Both the position numbers and the translations under genes were made by a program. Shown in pieces: positions 28,508-35,772 of a DNA stretch of 64,000 nt (the first letter of the stretch is position 1; every line of letters begins with the position of its first letter). The DNA comes from Acidobacteriota bacterium (GTDB lineage Bacteria; Acidobacteriota; UBA6911; RPQK01; JAJDTT01), in contig OY764083.1 in NCBI GenBank assembly GCA_963668095.1, forward strand, positions 1,131,709 to 1,195,708, read 5' to 3'. Under the pieces are notes generated by a model, which worked only from the letters and a program-made list of their open reading frames with translations, did no database searches and was not told the DNA's origin.

Positions 28508-29347
28508 TCAGCAGGTCACGAATTCTACATCGGGCCTATGAGGAATCAGGCCAGCCGAGAATCCACGGTCCAGAAAAAGCCGGACCGCGCGACGCCCCTC
28601 CTCGCCATAGCTGACGGTGCGCTGGTTGACGTACATCCCGACGAACTGGTCTCCCTGATCCCGGCCCAACCCTCTGCCATAACTCAGAGCATAGTCCAGG
28701 GCGTCGTCCCGATGTTCCAGGGCATAGCGGATGCTTTCTTTCAAGAGCCGGCAGACCTGGTGGATCCGTTCCCTTCCCAGATCCCTTCGGATCACGTTTC
28801 CCCCCAGAGGAAGGGGCAGACCGGTATTCTGGTTCCACCATAGGCCCAGATCCACGATGCAGTGCAGACCCAGACTCTCGTACAGCAATTGGCCCTCGTG
28901 GATGATGAGACCCGCATCCACCTCTCCGGCCTGAACGGCGGGGATGATCCGGTCGAAGTCCATCACCCGGTATCGCAGATTGGGCACCAACAGCTTCAGG
29001 GCCAGTAGGGCGGAGGTCCTCTCGCCCGGCGCCGCCACCATCAGCGAGGAGATCTCCTCCACCCCAAACGGTTTCCGCGCGACCAGAACCGGCCCGTAGC
29101 CTTCCCCCATGCTGGCGCCGCTGTCCAGCAGGGCATAGCGATCGGCGAGATAAGCATAGGCATGGATGCTCACAGCCGTCACCTCGTACCGGCCTTCCTC
29201 GGCATCTTGATTCAGGCTCTCGATGTCCTTGAGTTCGTGCACGAATTGGAGTCCACCCGTGTCCATGGCGCCGGTGGCCAACGCGTAGAACATGAAAGCG
29301 TCGTCGCTGTCGGGACTGTGAGCTACGTGAATCACCTGATCTGTCAC
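28508..29347 (-). CDS. mqnD: MqnA/MqnD family protein (1,4-dihydroxy-6-naphthoate synthase-like, futalosine pathway)
   Basis: HSPDSDDAFMFYAL, DIESLN, GYGP, LIIHEGQL, LPLPLG, MYVN; GTG start with AGGAG RBS. Confidence 0.85.
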   Translation of the reverse strand: MTDQVIHVAHSPDSDDAFMFYALATGAMDTGGLQFVHELKDIESLNQDAEEGRYEVTAVSIHAYAYLADRYALLDSGASMGEGYGPVLVARKPFGVEEISSLMVAAPGERTSALLALKLLVPNLRYRVMDFDRIIPAVQAGEVDAGLIIHEGQLLYESLGLHCIVDLGLWWNQNTGLPLPLGGNVIRRDLGRERIHQVCRLLKESIRYALEHRDDALDYALSYGRGLGRDQGDQFVGMYVNQRTVSYGEEGRRAVRLFLDRGFSAGLIPHRPDVEFVTC

Positions 29348-29405
29348 TGAAAATCTCCTGTTCCGCCGGCCGTTCGGCCCAGGCAGATGCCGTCGAGAGG
29401 CCGCA

Positions 29406-30128
29406 CTATAGCAAAAATGATTCGATGTCCTGCAAGTCCTCGACGCGGTATTCGGCGCGGTCCACCCAACGTCGCCCGGGATCGTAAAGAAGAGTGTGCA
29501 GGCCCGCCGCCCGGCCGGCATCGTAGTCCTCCTCCGGATGGTCTCCCACGTGAAGGCACCGGCCCGGAACGGACTCGGCCTGCCGGATCACCATTCGAAA
29601 CATCGCTGCTTGCGGTTTGGCGTGAGGGGACTCGGAGGAAACCGAAATCAGATCGAAGAAATCCCGGATTTCCAGCGACTTCAGGACCGAGTCGATCCGG
29701 CTGTCGAAGTTCGAGATGATCCCCAGGTTTCGCCCCTGGAGCTTGAGCCCCTCCAAGACCCGCCAGCATCCGGTCTCCAGTTCCCAGGCCGCGTCCGTGG
29801 CGAAAAGATCGAAGACCGATTCGAAAAACCTGTCGAACCGGAAGAATGGCCCCAGGTCCCGAAAGGTTTCTCGAACCACGTCCCGCCACCACTCCTTCTG
29901 GGCGGCTTCTCCGGATCTGTCTGCCAGGGGAGACGCCACCTGAGCCTTCCGAAAGGCTCGCTTGAAGGCTCGATCGATGCGGGCCGTTCCGGCCTGATCC
30001 CGGCCGCCACGGAAGCCGTGGCGGGACGCCTCCCGGCCGTAGACCTCTCCAACCGACCCGCGGACCCTGAACAGGGTTCCCACCGCGTCGAAGAACACCC
30101 ACTCTATCTTCCAGGGCGAACCCATCAT
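29406..30128 (-). CDS. HAD-superfamily hydrolase (REG-2/HDHD3-like)
   Basis: FFDAVGTL, ISNFD, KP, HVGD...D..AG. Confidence 0.88.
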   Translation of the reverse strand: MMGSPWKIEWVFFDAVGTLFRVRGSVGEVYGREASRHGFRGGRDQAGTARIDRAFKRAFRKAQVASPLADRSGEAAQKEWWRDVVRETFRDLGPFFRFDRFFESVFDLFATDAAWELETGCWRVLEGLKLQGRNLGIISNFDSRIDSVLKSLEIRDFFDLISVSSESPHAKPQAAMFRMVIRQAESVPGRCLHVGDHPEEDYDAGRAAGLHTLLYDPGRRWVDRAEYRVEDLQDIESFLL

Positions 30129-30861: not shown

Positions 30862-31188
30862 TCAACTCGACCGGCGCCGGATTGCACCCAGCTTGTAGCC
30901 CCTGCCCCGCAAGGTCAGGATCTGTTGTCCCGCCTTGCCCAGCTTCTTCCGGAGCCGTCCCACGTGGGTATCCACTGTCCGTTCGCCGCCCTGGTAGTGC
31001 TCTCCCCAGGCCGCATCCAGTAGTTGGCGGCGGCTAAGAGTCCGTCCCGCGTTTCTCAACAGGCAAACCAGAAGATTGTATTCGGCGACAGTCAGACGGA
31101 GCAGGCGGCGTCCGGCCCGGGCCGAGCACTGATCCAGGTCCACGGATATTCCCCCCGCCCGGATGATGCTACGCGACATGGGAGCCAA
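30862..31188 (-). CDS. Stand-alone OmpR/PhoB-type winged-helix DNA-binding protein
   Basis: LT..EY.LL..L....G...SR.QLL...WG......RTVDTHV.RLRKKL......I.T.RG.GYK; no receiver domain. Confidence 0.8.
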   Translation of the reverse strand: MAPMSRSIIRAGGISVDLDQCSARAGRRLLRLTVAEYNLLVCLLRNAGRTLSRRQLLDAAWGEHYQGGERTVDTHVGRLRKKLGKAGQQILTLRGRGYKLGAIRRRSS

Positions 31189-31375
31189 TGCCGAAGGCCC
31201 GGCCCGCCGGCCGGACGGAGGTTGCGCCGAATTCGACGATGGAGGAGCAGACTCGTGTCTCCCGGCCGACTCCGGGCCGGATGCAAACGTAACCTAACGC
31301 CGCGGGGCGCGATTCGGCGCCTTTCGAATCCTTTGACTGCTCCTGTCCCGAGCCCATGGATCCCGTTCCCCGGCT

Positions 31376-33901
31376 TCAGGACCGAACCAGGGCCAGACCC
31401 TGGCCTCGGCTGGAGGCGTACTCGGAATTCGGACGGGTGATGCGAGCCAGAGTCTTGGCCAGCGGATACGAACTCTCCACCTTGGAAGCCCCGACGCCCA
31501 CCGGGATGAAGTTCCCGCCCTGAGCGTCCCAGATGGCCTTGTTCACCCGGTAGGCGCGCTCTTGAGCCGCGTCGAAAGAGGCGTCCGCAAACACGTCCCG
31601 GAATTCGGTCATGCGACCCGATTCGTCCAGTTGGATCCAGGCGGATACGGCGACTCCCCGGCTGGAGATGGTGGCGATGGCGTCCCGGAAAGAGAGTGGC
31701 GTCGGAAACATGTAGTGGGACCCCCGTCCGTCCCCTTGAGTCATGTAGAAGTGGTCCCGCATGAAGAGATTGAGCCCCTCGGCCAGCGGCTCCACCGACA
31801 GCAGCACCGGATCGTCCTTGCCCAGATACTCACCGCCCGAAATGACGGCCAGCTTTTCGGTGGAAGCCGACAGCAGGACCTCGTCCAGACTTCGGTGAGG
31901 CCGCGACGGATCGAATTCCCCGTTCCGGCTCCACACCCGTTTGACGTTGAACTTCTCCACGGCCCCGAGCAGCGTCTGGCAATGCCCCGACTCGGTTTCC
32001 AGGTCCAGGAAGATCCGGCGATGATGCTCCACGTCCCAGACCTCCAGAACGGCCCCCACGCCACCGATGGTGTCGAGGTGCCGCTGCAGTGAACCGCTGG
32101 TCCTGGCGTGATTCAGGCTCCACCAGACGGGCAGGTTGAAAGCCGATGGTCCGGCCTTGTCGATGGACAGAAGACCGACCCGTTGCGTGCGGTTGAGGGG
32201 CAGCTCGGCAAAGCCGGGCCCCTGCCCCGAAACGTTGCCGGAGAAGACCGGTTCGGGCTCGCCGGCCTCGACCAACCCGGCCTTCCAGTCCCGGTAGGAT
32301 TTCTCGAGGACCCCGATCTGGGACCGCTCGGCCTCGGGCAGGTGATCGGCCAACAGCTCCAAAAACCGATCGGTGAGGTGAGCCAGCTCCTCCGTGGCAC
32401 GGCCGGCCGAGGCGTCCCCGACCAGATCCTGGCCCAGACCGTACCACTTGTAGCCCAGCGTGCTGGCGACCCAGACTTGGCGAAAGAAGGTTCGATACGC
32501 AAAAAGGTGGACCGCGTTGTCGTCGGCGCCGCGGGAATGGGTCATGAGCAGGTGCTCGTCATCGCCCACCTCGATGATCTCGGAGGTCGAGGAGATGAGA
32601 CCCAGCTCCGTCGCTTCCTGGAGACTCGCCTTGGCGACGAACCGAAAATGGTTCGGCGGCGTCGTGTGTCCGACTTTGCCTCCACCGTCGGCCTTGATGT
32701 CCGAGATGGTGAAACGCGCCCGCTGGTTGGCGCCCGCAATCAGAGAGTCCTGCTCGGGTATATCTTCAAGTCGACCGGCGAGGCGGCCGGCCAGATCCGC
32801 GGCCCTGGATTCCGACGCTTGGGGATTCAGATAGGGCTCGAACTCACCGTGTCCGACCATGTGCCGGATCAGTTCGGCGGCGTCCCGTTGCAGGCAGCGG
32901 GTCTCGGGACGATTCTGGTCGAAAATATCCACGACGTCAGTGTCCGAGGGGATGCGGCCTCGACCGAAAGACTGGTAGGCGTACGCCACGACCCGGGCGG
33001 CTCCTTCGCCGGAATGGAGCGGACAGCTTCCGGGAAAGTCCACCGGAACCAGACCGACCCGGTACTCTCCACCACGCCCTCCCGGACCGAAATGAAACTC
33101 TCCGGCAGCTTGCGTAAATTCGCCGATGGCTGGCAGCCCCGACTGGGAGCGTCCGATCAGGATGGGATTGGTGCTTCCACCCACCAGCGCGGCCGGCTCA
33201 TCCCGCAGGTCGCCCTCGGCGAACCTGCCCCGAACCGCGTAGACCTGACTCAGACGCCATTGCTCGGCATCGGCAATGAGAGCCACCAACTCGTTCAGCT
33301 GGCCCGGTCCGAACTCGTAGGTCCGGACCCGATCCCGGCCCGCGGACAAGTCTTCGATGGATTCGACCACTCCGAGATAGTCATTGGCCTCGATTCTGCG
33401 CCCGGATCCCTTGTCCGGATTGAAGAAGAGATTGAAAAGAGACCGGTTGAAGAAACCCCATGCACCGCCCAGGGCTTTGGCCACAAAGATGGGTTCGGCC
33501 CCTCGCTCCGTATAGGGATAGTTCAGCAGGCGGACACCCAGAGCCTCCCGCTGCGCGTCATCGGACAGTGAGAAGACTTCCTCGGCCTCGGGTCCGGTCA
33601 GGCCGGCCGCCAGGGCATGTTCCAGGGCCTTCAGCCCACCCTTCAGTGCGACCCCGGCCGAAACCTCGACCGCATCCTCATTGGAAAAGTCTCCATTGAG
33701 GCTCGAGAGATGGATGTGAATGTCCCCGCCGAAGGACTGAACCCAGGACCCGCGAAGACCCGATTGGAGGCCCGAGGCGGCCACTTCATCTCTGACCGCC
33801 TGCACGATGGCGGACGGAGTCTCCGCCGCGGTCCAGCGGCCCAGATCTACGGAAACGATGGTGACATTGGATTGTTCGGAGACGGTATTCCCCGTTTTCA
33901 T
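31376..33901 (-). CDS. Tandem double-domain fructose-1,6-bisphosphate aldolase/phosphatase (FBPase class V) protein
   Basis: C-terminal half has IKADGGG..GH, GDD, YGLGQDL, FSGNVSGQGPG, DK, STEKL...YLGKDDP, RGSH. N-terminal half has TERGAEP, RSQSGLPAIGE, HGEFEP. Confidence 0.85.
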   Translation of the reverse strand: MKTGNTVSEQSNVTIVSVDLGRWTAAETPSAIVQAVRDEVAASGLQSGLRGSWVQSFGGDIHIHLSSLNGDFSNEDAVEVSAGVALKGGLKALEHALAAGLTGPEAEEVFSLSDDAQREALGVRLLNYPYTERGAEPIFVAKALGGAWGFFNRSLFNLFFNPDKGSGRRIEANDYLGVVESIEDLSAGRDRVRTYEFGPGQLNELVALIADAEQWRLSQVYAVRGRFAEGDLRDEPAALVGGSTNPILIGRSQSGLPAIGEFTQAAGEFHFGPGGRGGEYRVGLVPVDFPGSCPLHSGEGAARVVAYAYQSFGRGRIPSDTDVVDIFDQNRPETRCLQRDAAELIRHMVGHGEFEPYLNPQASESRAADLAGRLAGRLEDIPEQDSLIAGANQRARFTISDIKADGGGKVGHTTPPNHFRFVAKASLQEATELGLISSTSEIIEVGDDEHLLMTHSRGADDNAVHLFAYRTFFRQVWVASTLGYKWYGLGQDLVGDASAGRATEELAHLTDRFLELLADHLPEAERSQIGVLEKSYRDWKAGLVEAGEPEPVFSGNVSGQGPGFAELPLNRTQRVGLLSIDKAGPSAFNLPVWWSLNHARTSGSLQRHLDTIGGVGAVLEVWDVEHHRRIFLDLETESGHCQTLLGAVEKFNVKRVWSRNGEFDPSRPHRSLDEVLLSASTEKLAVISGGEYLGKDDPVLLSVEPLAEGLNLFMRDHFYMTQGDGRGSHYMFPTPLSFRDAIATISSRGVAVSAWIQLDESGRMTEFRDVFADASFDAAQERAYRVNKAIWDAQGGNFIPVGVGASKVESSYPLAKTLARITRPNSEYASSRGQGLALVRS

Positions 33902-34248
33902 TTCGCTTATGACTCCCAGGCATTAGAAAAAACGATTCAACCTTACCGGCGACCGGATCATCTGCACCGGTAACACAGCCGTCGATCAGCCAATTCTCTG
34001 ACGGCGTTATTGTACCTTTCTCCCCCGAAAAAAATGTCGTCCTCCGATGCTCACAGCCGCACATCGCCGCCGCCCGAAGACGGGACCTGATAAGAGCCTC
34101 GGGGAGTCTGCGGATCAGCAGGTCCGGTGATGCGGTCTTGTGCCGGAGATCGGCTACAACTGAACTCTCGCATTCGCTCGCCAACCAGGATTGGAATGGG
34201 ACGATGGAACGTCCCCACCCTTCAGGAGGCGGGGACATTACAAGGCGG

Positions 34249-35772
34249 TTATGCTCTCGACCGGCGAAGTTCCCGGATGCCCTCGGACAGAATGCGCAAA
34301 AAGCTGGACCGGTTCTGCCAGAGCAGCAGGATCCAATGCCGCTTCTTCATCTGAGGAAAATAGATGCCCCGGAACGCCAGCCGCGTGAAGAACATCAACG
34401 TTCGTTCGTGGAAGGGACGCCCCTCTATTTTCTTCAATGCCAGGGCCGTGGTCTGGGGCGAGTAAGACCGGCTCCAGGCCTCGTGAACTTCGGCTTCGGC
34501 CGCCTTGACGCTGATGTTGTTGGGAGTGAAGGCCATGCGGAAAGGCCTGAAATCGAGCCAGTGTTTGGGACGGGTCAGCCGATCCTGCGCCAGCAGACGA
34601 TCATACAGCGGCGTTGCGGGATAGGGCGTCAGCAAGCCGAACACCGGCAGCCCCGGAGGCCAGCTGTCGATGATGTCCAGGGTCTTCCGGGCCACTCCCG
34701 GACGATCGCCGTCCATCCCGAAGATGAAGGAGGTGATGGAGTAGATGCCGCGCCGGGCGAGGCGGTCCAGGACCTCCGCGTATTGCGCCGGTTTGTTGAA
34801 GCCCTTGTTCACTCCCTTGAGGTTCTCGTCGTCAACCGACTCGAGACCCATGAAAATCCAGCGGCCGCCACTCTCCTTGATCAGGTCTACCAGTTCTTCG
34901 TCCTTCAGCAGGTTCACGCTGATCTGAGCGACCCAGGGAATTACGGCATCCTGCGCAATGATTTCCCGAAGCAGCGATTTGGTCCGCCGTTTGTTGAGGG
35001 CGAAATTGTCGTCGATAAAGAAAACGCCGACTCTACTGTCCTCCTTTCGGGCCCGGGCCTTGAGGCGCAGCATCTCGTCAACGACGCTCTGATCGCTTCG
35101 GAAGCGAATGGAGTCACCGAAGAACCCGGTGACGGTGCAGAAATCGCATCCGTACGGACAGCCCCTGCCGGACTCGATGGGTACGACGTAAAGGCCCTTC
35201 CAAGTGTTTCCCGCCTTCCTCAGCAGGTAGCGGCCCCAGTTGGGGATCTTGGACATGAGGTCGAACTGGCTCAAGTCCAGATCTTCCCATGGAATGTGGG
35301 GGTAGTCGTCCAGAGAGGGCTTGATCTCGCGGCCCGTTTCATCGACTGGCTCGTAGACTTCTTGAAGCTGACCCGCCTCCGCATCGGCCACGATCTTGGG
35401 CCAGATATCATCCGCTTCCCCCAGCGCCACTGCGTCCGCGTGGCGGGGTTCGCCGCTCCTTCCAATCGGCTCGTCGGGAACCTCGGTCACGTGGGGTCCC
35501 CCCATCACGACCTTGGCGCCCGCCGACCGAATGGCGTCGGCCATCTGGTACGCGCGCGCCGCCATCCGGGTCATGGCCCCGATGCCGGCCAGCTTGATAT
35601 CGTTCTCCCTGACGAATTCCATGATGTCCGCCCGGGTCATGGGCTGGGCGTTCCCGTCGATCAGGAACACCTTGTGCTCCGGAGGCGTCACGGCCTGCAG
35701 GACAAACATCCACAAGTGCGGCATGTAGTTCTTCGTTACCTGGTTGTCGGGGTTGTACAACAATATGTTCAT
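34249..35772 (-). CDS. B12-binding-domain radical SAM protein
   Basis: VMGGPH..., DAVALGEAD (cobalamin-binding domain); GRGCPYGCDFC; FIDDN; GLES; LTPYPATPLY. Confidence 0.9.
   Translation of the reverse strand: MNILLYNPDNQVTKNYMPHLWMFVLQAVTPPEHKVFLIDGNAQPMTRADIMEFVRENDIKLAGIGAMTRMAARAYQMADAIRSAGAKVVMGGPHVTEVPDEPIGRSGEPRHADAVALGEADDIWPKIVADAEAGQLQEVYEPVDETGREIKPSLDDYPHIPWEDLDLSQFDLMSKIPNWGRYLLRKAGNTWKGLYVVPIESGRGCPYGCDFCTVTGFFGDSIRFRSDQSVVDEMLRLKARARKEDSRVGVFFIDDNFALNKRRTKSLLREIIAQDAVIPWVAQISVNLLKDEELVDLIKESGGRWIFMGLESVDDENLKGVNKGFNKPAQYAEVLDRLARRGIYSITSFIFGMDGDRPGVARKTLDIIDSWPPGLPVFGLLTPYPATPLYDRLLAQDRLTRPKHWLDFRPFRMAFTPNNISVKAAEAEVHEAWSRSYSPQTTALALKKIEGRPFHERTLMFFTRLAFRGIYFPQMKKRHWILLLWQNRSSFLRILSEGIRELRRSRA

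Follow-up and report, generated by a model that had tools for sequence, protein, structure and literature searches.

A tandem FBP aldolase/phosphatase from an Acidobacteriota bacterium with one catalytically equipped unit and one conserved, catalytically dead unit

FBP aldolase/phosphatase (FBPA/P) is commonly discussed as the ancestral enzyme of gluconeogenesis and is a textbook example of a single active site being remodelled for two reactions. The canonical protein is a homo-oligomer, and every subunit is active. The gene described here, located in a 64,000-nucleotide stretch of Acidobacteriota DNA (the window), encodes 841 residues arranged in two unlike units, as against the usual single-unit polypeptide of ~360–400 residues. 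Does each unit hold an active site of its own, or do the two units share one?

Two folds with complementary losses

The whole protein matches Pfam PF01950 (FBPase_3) with 238.8 bits (E 1.4e-70). The original prediction was that the chain contains two FBPA/P-like domains with a boundary near residue 398, and each half searched alone bears this out: residues 1–397 score 56.7 bits (E 3e-15, profile positions 4–338 of 361) and residues 398–841 score 185.9 bits (E 1.6e-54). The whole protein and both halves exceed the gathering cut-off of 25. Both halves also resemble archaeal folds at Z ~32. Residues 10–380 of the N-half model superimpose on 1umg (Z 32.3, rmsd 3.1 Å, 329 residues), and residues 395–816 of the C-half model on 3t2d (Z 32.0, rmsd 3.2 Å, 336 residues). 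The whole-chain model (pTM 0.81, mean pLDDT 80.7) matched 3r1m in Foldseek at E 2e-19; its low-confidence stretches lie at the C-unit active-site motifs (residues 407–414, 488–491, 553–562, 682–695, and 723–730) and at residues 795–805, and the pLDDT below 50 at 682–695 is as expected for a mobile loop. Compared with each other by BLASTP, the halves have no detectable likeness (best E 1.5), so it takes the family profile and the fold to reveal the duplication. The ORF is thus confirmed as two complete PF01950 folds, one of which is catalytically dead yet strongly conserved. Against the NCBIfam equivalog model NF041126 (FBP_aldo_phos), the whole protein scores 234.3 bits, the N half 61.9, and the C half 176.2; the curated cut-off is 520 bits, and by that standard the 841-residue protein is not an equivalog.

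Table 1. Coordinates in the window of the gene, its two units, and their motifs.
Feature	Residues	Window positions	Strand	Basis or remark
Tandem FBP aldolase/phosphatase gene		31376..33901	(-)	ORF translation: 841 codons + TGA, ATG start
N unit	1–397	32711..33901	(-)	FBPA/P fold without catalytic residues; PF01950, alignment, model
ERGAEP	132–137	33491..33508	(-)	canonical ERxSEP motif, retained only in N unit
FFNPDKGSG	159–167	33401..33427	(-)	most conserved N-unit stretch
RSQSGLPAIGE loop	251–261	33119..33151	(-)	aligns with ST0318 R-L-Q-H-G-L-P-A-L-G-E; proposed donor to C-unit site
Linker region	365–397	32711..32809	(-)	4 of 33 columns invariant; model helices 360–373, 386–394
C unit	398–841	31379..32710	(-)	catalytically equipped; PF01950, model, conservation
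KADGGGKVGH	403–412	32666..32695	(-)	equivalents of Lys9, Asp11, His18 (metal site)
GDD	446–448	32558..32566	(-)	equivalents of Asp52, Asp53
Helical insertion, 55 residues	497–551	32249..32413	(-)	between Y-x-x-G-Q and S-G-N; absent from single-unit enzymes
YLGKDD	692–697	31811..31828	(-)	Schiff-base loop; equivalents of Tyr229, Lys232, Asp233, Asp234
PVLLSVEPLAEGLNL	698–712	31766..31810	(-)	place of R-x-Q loop in single-unit enzymes; loop missing
RGSH	726–729	31715..31726	(-)	equivalent of Arg266-Gly-Ser-His
Tyr812	812	31466..31468	(-)	likely equivalent of ST0318 C-terminal-loop Tyr347

The residue numbers and roles of the reference enzyme, S. tokodaii ST0318, are presumed ones anchored on our alignments, Tyr347 excepted. 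We take its catalytic set to include the Schiff-base Lys232 with Tyr229 and the metal ligands Asp11, His18, Asp52, Asp53, Gln95, Asp132, Asp233, and Asp234. Only the C unit has the corresponding residues: K403, D405, H412, D447, D448, Y487, Q491, G555, N556, D581, K582, Y692, K695, D696, D697, R726, S728, H729, and Y812. All the motifs predicted for this copy (KAD..GH, GDD, YGLGQ, SGN, DK, YLGKDD, and RGSH) are present, with YGLGQD at residues 487–492, SGN at 554–556, and DK at 581–582 completing the list in Table 1. K403, D405, and H412 are invariant in close homologues and retained in 50/50 fully aligned C units, and the fifteen positions from K403 to D697 are identical in 48 of these 50 representatives. 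Position 726 is more variable (Arg in 19, Asn in 24, another residue in seven). Around Tyr812, residues V808, E809, S811, Y812, P813, and L814 are invariant in close homologues, and a tyrosine occupies the position in 49 of 50 C units; the register that equates it with Tyr347, a number taken from PMC8740755, differs by two residues from the sequence alignment with ST0318. Overall, 160 of the 444 C-unit columns are invariant in 45 homologues.

The C unit departs from the canonical enzyme in two respects. First, it aligns with ST0318 chain 3r1m in two stretches, split by the 55-residue insertion, whose model helices span residues 503–540; single-unit proteins skip the corresponding C-unit HMM positions (~101–153), which the N-C proteins cover. 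Second, the C copy was predicted to lack the ERPSEP, FADPFNT, and RxQSGLPAxGE motifs, and it reads NRTQRV, LNHARTSG, and PVLLSVEPLAEGLNL in their places. The R-x-Q-(H/K/G) loop that follows the Schiff-base motif in single-unit class V enzymes is therefore absent from the C unit and present only in the N unit. No C unit of the N-C proteins has an R-x-Q after its K-D-D-P motif, whereas most single-unit enzymes have one.

The N unit is the mirror image. It aligns end to end with ST0318 (3r1m index 5–347, E 7e-15), and the alignment upholds every loss that had been proposed for it: Lys9 is replaced by Ser, His18 by Ala, Asp52 by Gly, Asp-Lys by Ala-Leu, and RGSH by GGEY, the Tyr91/Gln95 and Gly-Asn positions are lost, and the Y-x-x-K-D-D loop is deleted. 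The canonical K-D-H-D-D combination occurs in 0 of 56 N-unit rows. The motifs said to persist are also in place, namely TERGAEP (here located as ERGAEP), FFNPD, RSQSGLPAIGE, and HGEFEP (residues 351–356). In 45 homologues, 84 of the 397 N-unit columns are invariant, concentrated in residues 121–360, while the would-be metal-site part, residues 1–120, is the least conserved (0.45–0.60). Mean column conservation in the 45 close homologues reaches 0.88–0.91 over residues 141–180, where F160, N161, P162, D163, K164, G165, S166, and G167 are invariant. In the loop, R251, Q253, S254, G255, L256, P257, A258, G260, and E261 are likewise invariant. Across the deep family, Gln253 is retained in 45/45 N units, R-Q-S-G in 32/45, and E-R-(E/D)-(P/S) in most.

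Homologues, descent, and genome context

The N/C asymmetry holds in 45 close homologues (59–92% identity) and extends to 43 additional representative proteins with identities as low as ~30%; the complementary losses, verified residue by residue, are therefore conserved far beyond the close homologues. Many of the 43 are 900–6393 residues long with signal-peptide-like starts, and by a crude rule such a start is found in 26 of 46 long relatives of this size; the same N-C module thus also resides inside very long, apparently exported proteins. The uninterrupted architecture recurs in at least 120 clusters of 805–875 residues and at 40 loci in named genome records, many of which are assembled as a single chromosome. 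It is common in public records, where the N-C proteins are labelled simply ‘fructose 1,6-bisphosphatase’; a literature search found no paper describing the fused architecture. RNA-library contigs from two studies cover the gene in close relatives at 90–97% likeness, which cannot prove transcription; one example (X18 record 21) covers positions 31339–34034 with 210 differing letters.

When 18 N units, 18 C units, and 14 single-unit proteins are placed in one tree, each unit type has a single origin, with the N units in one clade and the C units in a second (SH-aLRT 99 for both). Several sub-clades of one have a counterpart in the other, a pattern consistent with a single fusion and later co-evolution of the units. 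Among the single-unit proteins, P0304 branches as the sister of the C units and, like them, has no R-x-Q. A split, two-gene form was not found among 62 shorter matches, all of which are truncated pieces of fused proteins. The pair formed by N-unit Glu261 and C-unit Arg726 is complete in 14 of 45 units, wholly missing in 28, and mixed in three; independent pairs number four on all branches and one on well-supported branches, too few for coupling. The original prediction had read the protein as the outcome of duplication, fusion, and subfunctionalisation. The folds, the complementary losses, and the one clade per unit type support this in part; the division of labour within a composite site is a proposal that we weigh in the next section.

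The host genome (5.50 Mb, one contig, 96.65% complete) contains no other PF01950 locus, and the three PF01950 matches fall in one open frame of 848 residues without stops. Searches of this genome found no GlpX, class I FBPase, or class III FBPase, no class II FBA, no class I FBA (by a validated search), no PFK, no RuBisCO, and no PF00342 glucose-6-phosphate isomerase (PGI). Genes of the PPDK/PEP-synthase type are present. So are an IMPase-family gene and a DeoC-family gene that best matches LsrF thiolase (481 bits versus a cut-off of 297); either could conceivably supply a side activity. In a sample of the phylum comprising 151 genomes, GlpX or class I FBPase occurs in 0/4 with the fused gene versus 92/147 others. 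Twelve further fused-gene genomes, one of which is also in that sample, come from Acidobacteriota, Poribacteria, Gemmataceae, Latescibacterota, and Anaerolineae; class I FBPase is found in none of them, GlpX in one, class I FBA in two, and class II FBA in one (a weak match). Genomes with the canonical single-unit enzyme behave similarly, 11 of 15 being without GlpX and class I FBPase. Judged by gene content, the 841-residue protein appears to be the host's only enzyme for the FBP aldolase/FBPase step, and the context favours the ordinary FBP aldolase/phosphatase role over a new substrate; since 44 of the 151 genomes lack all three FBPase families, such absences do not prove the function.

A proposed composite active site and its alternatives

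The reading we favour, with moderate confidence, is that the protein is a pseudo-heterodimer in a single chain, has one composite active site, and works in gluconeogenesis. The C unit would join DHAP and GAP by aldol condensation and hydrolyse FBP to F6P, using Mg-binding Asp, His, and Gln residues, Lys695 as the Schiff-base residue together with Tyr692, and Tyr812 towards the C-terminus. Gln242 and His243 of ST0318 presumably act on the neighbouring subunit's site, in line with database annotation. The C unit would have lost the R-x-Q loop that in the homo-oligomer completes the substrate site next door. The N unit would be a folded pseudoenzyme that keeps this loop (R251-x-Q253-S254-G255) together with the interface motifs. 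We infer that it packs on the C unit in the way that partner subunits of the canonical enzyme pack together and donates the loop across the interface, so that each chain would have one working composite site and a reciprocal site dead on both sides. Such a protein, if enzymatically active as its residues suggest, would be the host's gluconeogenic FBP aldolase and FBPase.

A structure prediction of the N half paired with the C half lends weak support to this packing. The median ipSAE was 0.53 (runs 0.53, 0.49, and 0.65), with run-to-run contact agreement of at least 24% and partner pLDDT of at least 85, while the best of three controls scored 0.00. In the calibration, the mark was reached by 58 of 80 solved complexes and two of 110 mismatched pairs; at scores of 0.60 or below, it was reached by only seven of the 80 solved complexes and by both passing mismatches. 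The pass may only reflect likeness, because homo-oligomers of the FBPA/P family have already been solved.

The C unit could instead be self-sufficient, with the N unit retained as an assembly scaffold or an allosteric sensor, which we consider unlikely. The allosteric version would place an effector at the degenerate N pocket or at the conserved FNRxLFNLFFNPDKGSGRRIE stretch, by analogy with the inactive half of some duplicated sugar kinases. The self-sufficient reading draws on the fact that residues 141–180, and not the Q-S-G loop, are the most conserved N segment in the 840-residue subfamily; the 55-residue insertion could moreover stand in for the lost loop, and P0304 suggests that a loopless lone unit may exist. 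However, Gln253 persists in all 45 N units to ~30% identity although the remainder of the former site has decayed, a contrast that is difficult to account for if the loop is idle. The poor conservation of the former pocket in close homologues argues against an effector site there, and no stand-alone C unit was found among the 62 shorter matches.

It is quite unlikely, in our estimate, that the protein acts on a different substrate, such as sedoheptulose-1,7-bisphosphate or another ketose bisphosphate, a phosphorylated compound of a different kind, or a phosphoprotein; its annotation as an FBPase would in that case mislead. The score of 234 against the equivalog cut-off of 520 bits, the Q-S-G in place of Q-H-G, and the missing PGI would all fit such a change. 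There is also a precedent, because CinF keeps the fold and the catalytic Tyr with no detectable FBPase activity, according to its published account (PMC8740755). The signal-like starts of the long relatives and the Asn at position 726 in 24 of 50 C units make a cytoplasmic sugar-phosphate role unlikely for the 900–6393-residue proteins. The 841-residue protein, in contrast, has no signal peptide, and all mapped residues are intact in its C unit, Arg726 included. The usual FBPases, and for the most part the usual FBP aldolases, are missing from genomes with the 840-residue form, a tendency that canonical-enzyme genomes share. Lastly, a Calvin-cycle SBPase role does not apply, as the host has no RuBisCO. 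That the gene is an artefact of joining two genes in assembly or annotation, or a decaying duplicate, is scarcely credible: its only point is the low Pfam score of the N half, and it is contradicted by the recurrence in clusters and loci, the uninterrupted frame, the 84 invariant N-unit columns, and a relative's RNA-library contig spanning both units.

The preferred composite-site reading has a wider counterpart, which we regard as rather doubtful: an obligate asymmetric N-C module would have arisen once and spread into the cytoplasmic 840-residue enzyme and into exported proteins of 900–6393 residues with a second chemistry. In sponge-associated and other Acidobacteriota, Poribacteria, Latescibacterota, Planctomycetota, Nitrospinota, and Chloroflexota, the 840-residue form would have taken over the FBPase step and, in most searched genomes, the aldolase step as well, while the exported form would carry all the catalytic residues to a place outside the cytoplasm in which no FBP is expected. 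If so, the long exported relatives may hold a new function for this ancient fold, with phosphorylated sugars or glycans, from either the envelope or a host, as conceivable substrates, and the 840-residue form itself may not be a plain FBPA/P. A natural single-chain version would also be a system for assigning the parts of a shared site to individual subunits and could show how homo-oligomers become obligate hetero-units. For annotation, it matters that the N-C proteins labelled ‘fructose 1,6-bisphosphatase’ score below the equivalog cut-off. In several phyla they seem to provide the sole path from triose to hexose phosphates, and metabolic reconstructions of these mostly uncultured bacteria hinge on reading them correctly.

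Relation to known systems

Canonical class V FBPase (ST0318, 1umg/3r1m; Thermoproteus neutrophilus, 3t2b–3t2g) shares its fold with both halves and its mapped catalytic residues with the C unit, and the gluconeogenic role is probably the same; both the canonical enzyme and the N-C fusion tend to displace GlpX and class I FBPase. The canonical enzyme is one unit of ~360–400 residues, whereas here two units are fused with divided functions, and the C unit has gained the 55-residue insertion and lacks the R-x-Q loop. A second bacterial member of the fold family that departs from the canonical enzyme is Coxiella burnetii CinF (Cbu0513). According to PMC8740755, CinF is an FBPA/P homologue turned protein phosphatase, a single unit of 382 residues that shows ~39% identity to ST0318 and no longer has FBPase activity; its catalytic Tyr362 is required and matches ST0318 Tyr347, which is itself required for both activities. 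Unlike CinF, the present protein is a tandem with a full C-unit set, in a genome context suggestive of metabolic duty.

Duplication and fusion, with catalysis lost in one half that is kept for another role, also characterise unrelated folds. Mammalian hexokinase I and eukaryotic phosphofructokinase are duplicated and fused enzymes whose one non-catalytic half is regulatory; here, in contrast, we propose that the dead half contributes to the active site itself, given that subunits of the ancestral enzyme presumably shared their sites already. In trypanosomatid AdoMetDC and its prozyme, a dead paralogue is the obligate partner of the active one. That system likewise relies on a pseudoenzyme partner, but it has another fold and consists of separate polypeptides, whereas here both units belong to one chain.

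Two complementary halves in one chain

The query is an 841-residue tandem FBP aldolase/phosphatase (FBPA/P) built from an N unit without the catalytic residues (residues 1–397) and a catalytically equipped C unit (residues 398–841). The only Pfam family in the protein is FBPase_3 (PF01950), which reaches 238.8 bits over the whole chain in three stretches. The original prediction placed two FBPA/P domains in this ORF, and each half does score separately against the FBPase_3 HMM: residues 1–397 alone give 56.7 bits (E 3e-15) across profile positions 4–338 of 361, and the last 444 residues alone give 185.9 bits (E 1.6e-54). By sequence, the query is a member of the FBPA/P family, yet it is not an equivalog by the curated NCBIfam standard because it reaches 234 bits with the FBP aldolase/phosphatase equivalog model, which requires 520. 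BLASTP finds no recognisable likeness between the N half and the C half (best E 1.5). Aligned to the single-unit enzyme of S. tokodaii, ST0318 (PDB 1umg and 3r1m), the N half matches end to end (3r1m index 5–347, E 7e-15), and the C half matches in two segments on either side of a 55-residue insertion.

Features of the window and of the source genome G000
Feature	Coordinates	Strand	Details
Futalosine-pathway menaquinone gene	28508..29521	-	VitK2_biosynth, 248 bits
108-aa ORF, OmpR-type winged-helix DNA-binding domain only	30862..31188	-	Trans_reg_C, 87 bits
Tandem FBPA/P ORF	31376..33901	-	841 aa
B12-binding radical SAM protein	34249..35772	-	507 aa
Only DeoC-family gene of G000	L004:1351-2241 = G000:C1 about 742016-742906	+	297 aa; LsrF model match

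The residue map was read from the printed alignments to ST0318, with query coordinates checked separately; the ST0318 residue numbers, and the residue roles apart from that of Tyr347, are those we take to hold for this enzyme. The C unit retains K403-A-D405, H412, G446-D-D448, Y487, Q491, S554-G-N556, D581-K582, Y692-L-G-K695-D-D697 and R726-G-S-H729. It lacks ERxSEP, a FADPFNT-type motif and the R-x-Q-H-G-L-P-A-L-G-E loop that single-unit enzymes carry after the Schiff-base motif. Its Y812 sits near the place of ST0318 Tyr347, a residue that PMC8740755 reports as required for both activities. The N unit shows the opposite pattern: relative to ST0318, K9 is replaced by S, H18 by A, D52 by G, D-K by A-L and RGSH by GGEY, the Tyr/Gln and Gly-Asn positions are lost and the Y-x-x-K-D-D loop is deleted, while ERGAEP, FFNPDKGSG, RSQSGLPAIGE and HGEFEP are retained. 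The mirror-image loss of motifs described earlier is right in every detail checked against the alignments and coordinates, and the sequence-level observation of complementary halves is confirmed.

The AlphaFold2 model of the query, built with 45 homologues, has a mean pLDDT of 80.7 and a pTM of 0.81. Its low-confidence stretches include the C-unit active-site motifs (407–414, 488–491, 553–562, 682–695 and 723–730) and residues 795–805, and the chain ends (1–6 and 833–841) fall below a pLDDT of 50. Foldseek matches the model to FBPA/P structures, with 3r1m at E 2e-19. In VIA-align, model residues 10..380 superpose on 1umg with Z 32.3 (rmsd 3.1 Å, 329 aligned, 22% identity) and residues 395..816 on the Thermoproteus neutrophilus enzyme 3t2d with Z 32.0 (rmsd 3.2 Å, 336 aligned, 29% identity), against Z 9.3 for the next unrelated chain. 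These values argue that the N half and the C half are each a full FBPA/P fold in the predicted model, as had been proposed for the N half too.

Conservation and descent of the two units

A word-based search returned 202 proteins of 462–1472 residues at E <= 1e-3, and the best 120 of these matches are all 805–875 residues long, 58–92% identical to the query and aligned over 95–100% of its length. We aligned 45 of 121 sequences, spanning the identity range and with long contigs preferred. Invariant columns number 84 of 397 in the N unit and 160 of 444 in the C unit. Residues 1–120 of the N unit, which would hold the metal ligands, are its least conserved part (0.45–0.60), and residues 121–360 reach 0.70–0.91 with ERxAEP, FNR..FN..FNPDKGSG.R.E and R.QSGLPA.GE invariant. 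Judged from the alignment, the N unit is not a decaying domain.

The asymmetry extends well beyond the set of about 840 residues, down to about 30% identity, and its predicted conservation among homologues is borne out. Searched exhaustively with HMMER, a set of 1.84 billion representatives yields 267 proteins at E <= 1e-3, of which 141 reach <= 1e-10 and 69 reach <= 1e-30. We parsed the 150 listed matches with N-unit and C-unit HMMs derived from the alignment of 45 homologues. Under strict criteria, at least 44 of these 150, the query included, carry an N unit followed directly by a C unit; they are 841 to 6393 residues long and 30–65% identical to the query. Fifteen C-unit positions from K403 to D697 are identical in 48 of 50 fully aligned C units, the exceptions being P0200 and P0186, both at the Gly-Asn pair. 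Canonical K-D-H-D-D is kept in none of the 56 N-unit rows. All of 45 N units retain Gln253, and 32 of the 45 have R-Q-S-G. In this parsed list, R-x-Q after K-D-D-P is absent from every C unit of the N-C proteins, and vR.Q(H/K/G)..PA..E is present in most single-unit proteins.

The phylogeny comprises 18 N units, 18 C units and 14 single-unit proteins, the units coming from 18 of the 44 N-C proteins chosen to span the range. In this unrooted tree from a quick search, with the N units on a long branch, the N units group in a single clade (SH-aLRT 99), as do the C units (99). Several sub-clades match between the two parts, such as P0001 with P0029, P0189 with P0190 and P0225 with P0245. The C-unit clade has a single-unit protein, P0304, as its sister (SH-aLRT 96). 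At 453 residues, it lacks the R-x-Q loop, as the C units do, and has neither the 55-residue insertion nor an N unit. P0304 may be a relic of a pre-fusion stage or may have a separate partner. No split two-gene form appeared among the 62 shorter matches to the C half: every one is a truncated copy of a fused protein, and neither unit of the fused clade was met on its own.

Longer relatives form a group of their own. Among representatives P0184–P0255, the N-C module lies inside proteins of 900–6393 residues, and P0184 carries two N-C pairs. A signal-peptide-like N terminus is present in 26 of 46 by a crude rule, and in more by eye, often followed by an L-R-P motif. In the seven of these proteins that were scanned, Pfam recognises FBPase_3 alone, and nothing in their extensions. 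The C-unit catalytic set is kept, and position 726 among the 50 C units is Asn in 24, Arg in 19 and another residue in 7. All protein-atlas matches of P0188 are at or below 0.80 and fall on FBPase_3 clusters; one atlas cluster of 900-residue 'FBPase domain-containing' proteins has 502 members. Because the N-C module also occurs in long proteins whose starts resemble signal peptides, the fold may have a second function.

Genome context of the fused gene

The source genome, G000, is a 5.50-Mb single contig, 96.65% complete, in which the query gene is the only PF01950 locus; the window corresponds to G000:C1:1131709-1195708. Profile searches of G000 find no GlpX, class I FBPase or class III FBPase, and no class II or class I FBP aldolase. 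The class I aldolase search left the named control genomes unmatched, yet it works because 17 of the 151 genomes of the phylum sample matched. The only DeoC-family gene of G000 scores 481 bits against the LsrF (3-hydroxy-5-phosphonooxypentane-2,4-dione thiolase) model (cut-off 297) and 111 bits against the archaeal class I aldolase model (cut-off 430). G000 has PPDK/PEP-synthase-type genes and one IMPase-family gene, and searches for PFK (PF00365), RuBisCO and glucose-6-phosphate isomerase (PF00342) found none. Upper hexose-phosphate metabolism must run through other enzymes, since both PF00342 and PF00365 are missing from a genome of this completeness.

In a phylum sample of 151 genomes, all at least 90% complete, PF01950 occurs in 19 (four fused, 15 single-unit), GlpX in 53 and class I FBPase in 43; the tallies include genomes flagged as unpublished, G145 (GlpX and class II aldolase) and G023 (class I FBPase and class II aldolase), and no claim depends on either by itself. 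GlpX or class I FBPase is found in 0 of the 4 fused-gene genomes versus 92 of the 147 others. Four of the 15 single-unit genomes have one of the two: G006, G024 and G092 have GlpX, and G102 a marginal class I match. Same-order relatives without the fused gene have class I FBPase in 5 of 7 cases (G015, G032, G072, G120 and G131). None of the three FBPase families is present in 44 of the 151 genomes, and therefore the absence of alternatives is not proof. Named loci led to twelve further fused-gene genomes, from Acidobacteriota, Poribacteria (four), Latescibacterota (two), Gemmataceae (one) and Anaerolineae (one); among them, G160 shares its coordinates with G108 of the larger sample. In this set, with completeness not stated and eight being single-chromosome records by title, class I FBPase was found in none of the 12; GlpX turned up once (in the Anaerolineae MAG), class I aldolase twice and class II aldolase once (64.5 bits). 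The missing alternatives suggest that the fused gene stands in for the usual FBPase, and in most cases for the aldolase as well, having displaced these enzymes; kinship among the genomes limits the weight of these counts.

The 840-residue form is 57–66% identical across Acidobacteriota, Poribacteria, Latescibacterota, Gemmataceae, Nitrospinota and Chloroflexota MAGs (loci L006–L045), and several sequencing runs that hold it are labelled sponge metagenome, which together suggest transfer between phyla sharing a habitat. A conserved operon partner is ruled out: across 17 loci no neighbouring gene is common to the phyla, synteny is limited to one Acidobacteriota clade (6 loci), and the window neighbours (MqnA/D-type, HAD, MBL-fold, lone Trans_reg_C, B12 radical SAM and DegT) are unrelated to the query. 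The Trans_reg_C ORF has no receiver domain and follows the FBPA/P gene downstream, on the same strand, after a gap of 187 nt.

Metatranscriptome contigs from two studies extend over the orthologous gene in close relatives, at 90–97% likeness, with record 21 of contig set X18 spanning 31339–34034 and record 19 of X17 spanning 31894–34034; this is compatible with expression and is not proof of it. Upstream of the gene (34034..34253), the contigs of both sets carry 208 other letters for 218 nt, and in the downstream intergenic stretch (31124..31339) they break or diverge. The flanks therefore differ among relatives, with the gene itself about 92% identical.

A putative composite active site

In the canonical FBPA/P, we take Gln242-His243 of a neighbouring subunit to complete the active site. 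Since the canonical site, on this understanding, is built across subunits, a composite site would be the simplest account of the query. Duplication and fusion of an FBPA/P unit would have come first. One unit could then shed catalysis provided that the donated loop was kept, and the other could shed the loop provided that catalysis was kept. One working composite site per chain would be left, the reciprocal site being dead on both sides. Such a division of labour predicts the conservation pattern seen.

Two analyses bear on how the units relate. First, pairing prediction of the N half with the C half gives a median ipSAE of 0.53 (best control 0.00), a pass at the level of weak support, with run-to-run contact agreement of at least 24% and partner pLDDT of at least 85; in the tool's calibration, the mark was reached by 58 of the 80 solved complexes and by 2 of the 110 mismatched pairs, and values at or below 0.60 comprise 7 of the 80 solved complexes plus both mismatches that passed. 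This pass may reflect family likeness only, because homo-oligomers of the FBPA/P family are solved. Second, N-unit Glu261 and C-unit Arg726 are both present in 14 of 45 units, both missing in 28 and mixed in 3 (42 of 45 both or neither), and the single-unit P0284 has lost both equivalents. Coupling between the two residues is suggestive, with a sign test at p = 1 and only 1 to 4 independent pairs.

The proposed pseudo-dimer, born of duplication and subfunctionalisation, is partly supported: the case is strong for sequence, predicted fold, conservation and genome context, and the geometry and activity of the composite site are predictions. In public records the fused proteins are entered as fructose 1,6-bisphosphatase or FBP aldolase/phosphatase, with no further remark. 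No tandem or fused FBPA/P is described in the literature searched, and the available part of PMC12965863 contains nothing on a class V enzyme structure. FBPA/P as a kind of enzyme is already known; its single-chain asymmetric form, the apparent division of labour between the two units and the spread of this form appear to be undescribed.
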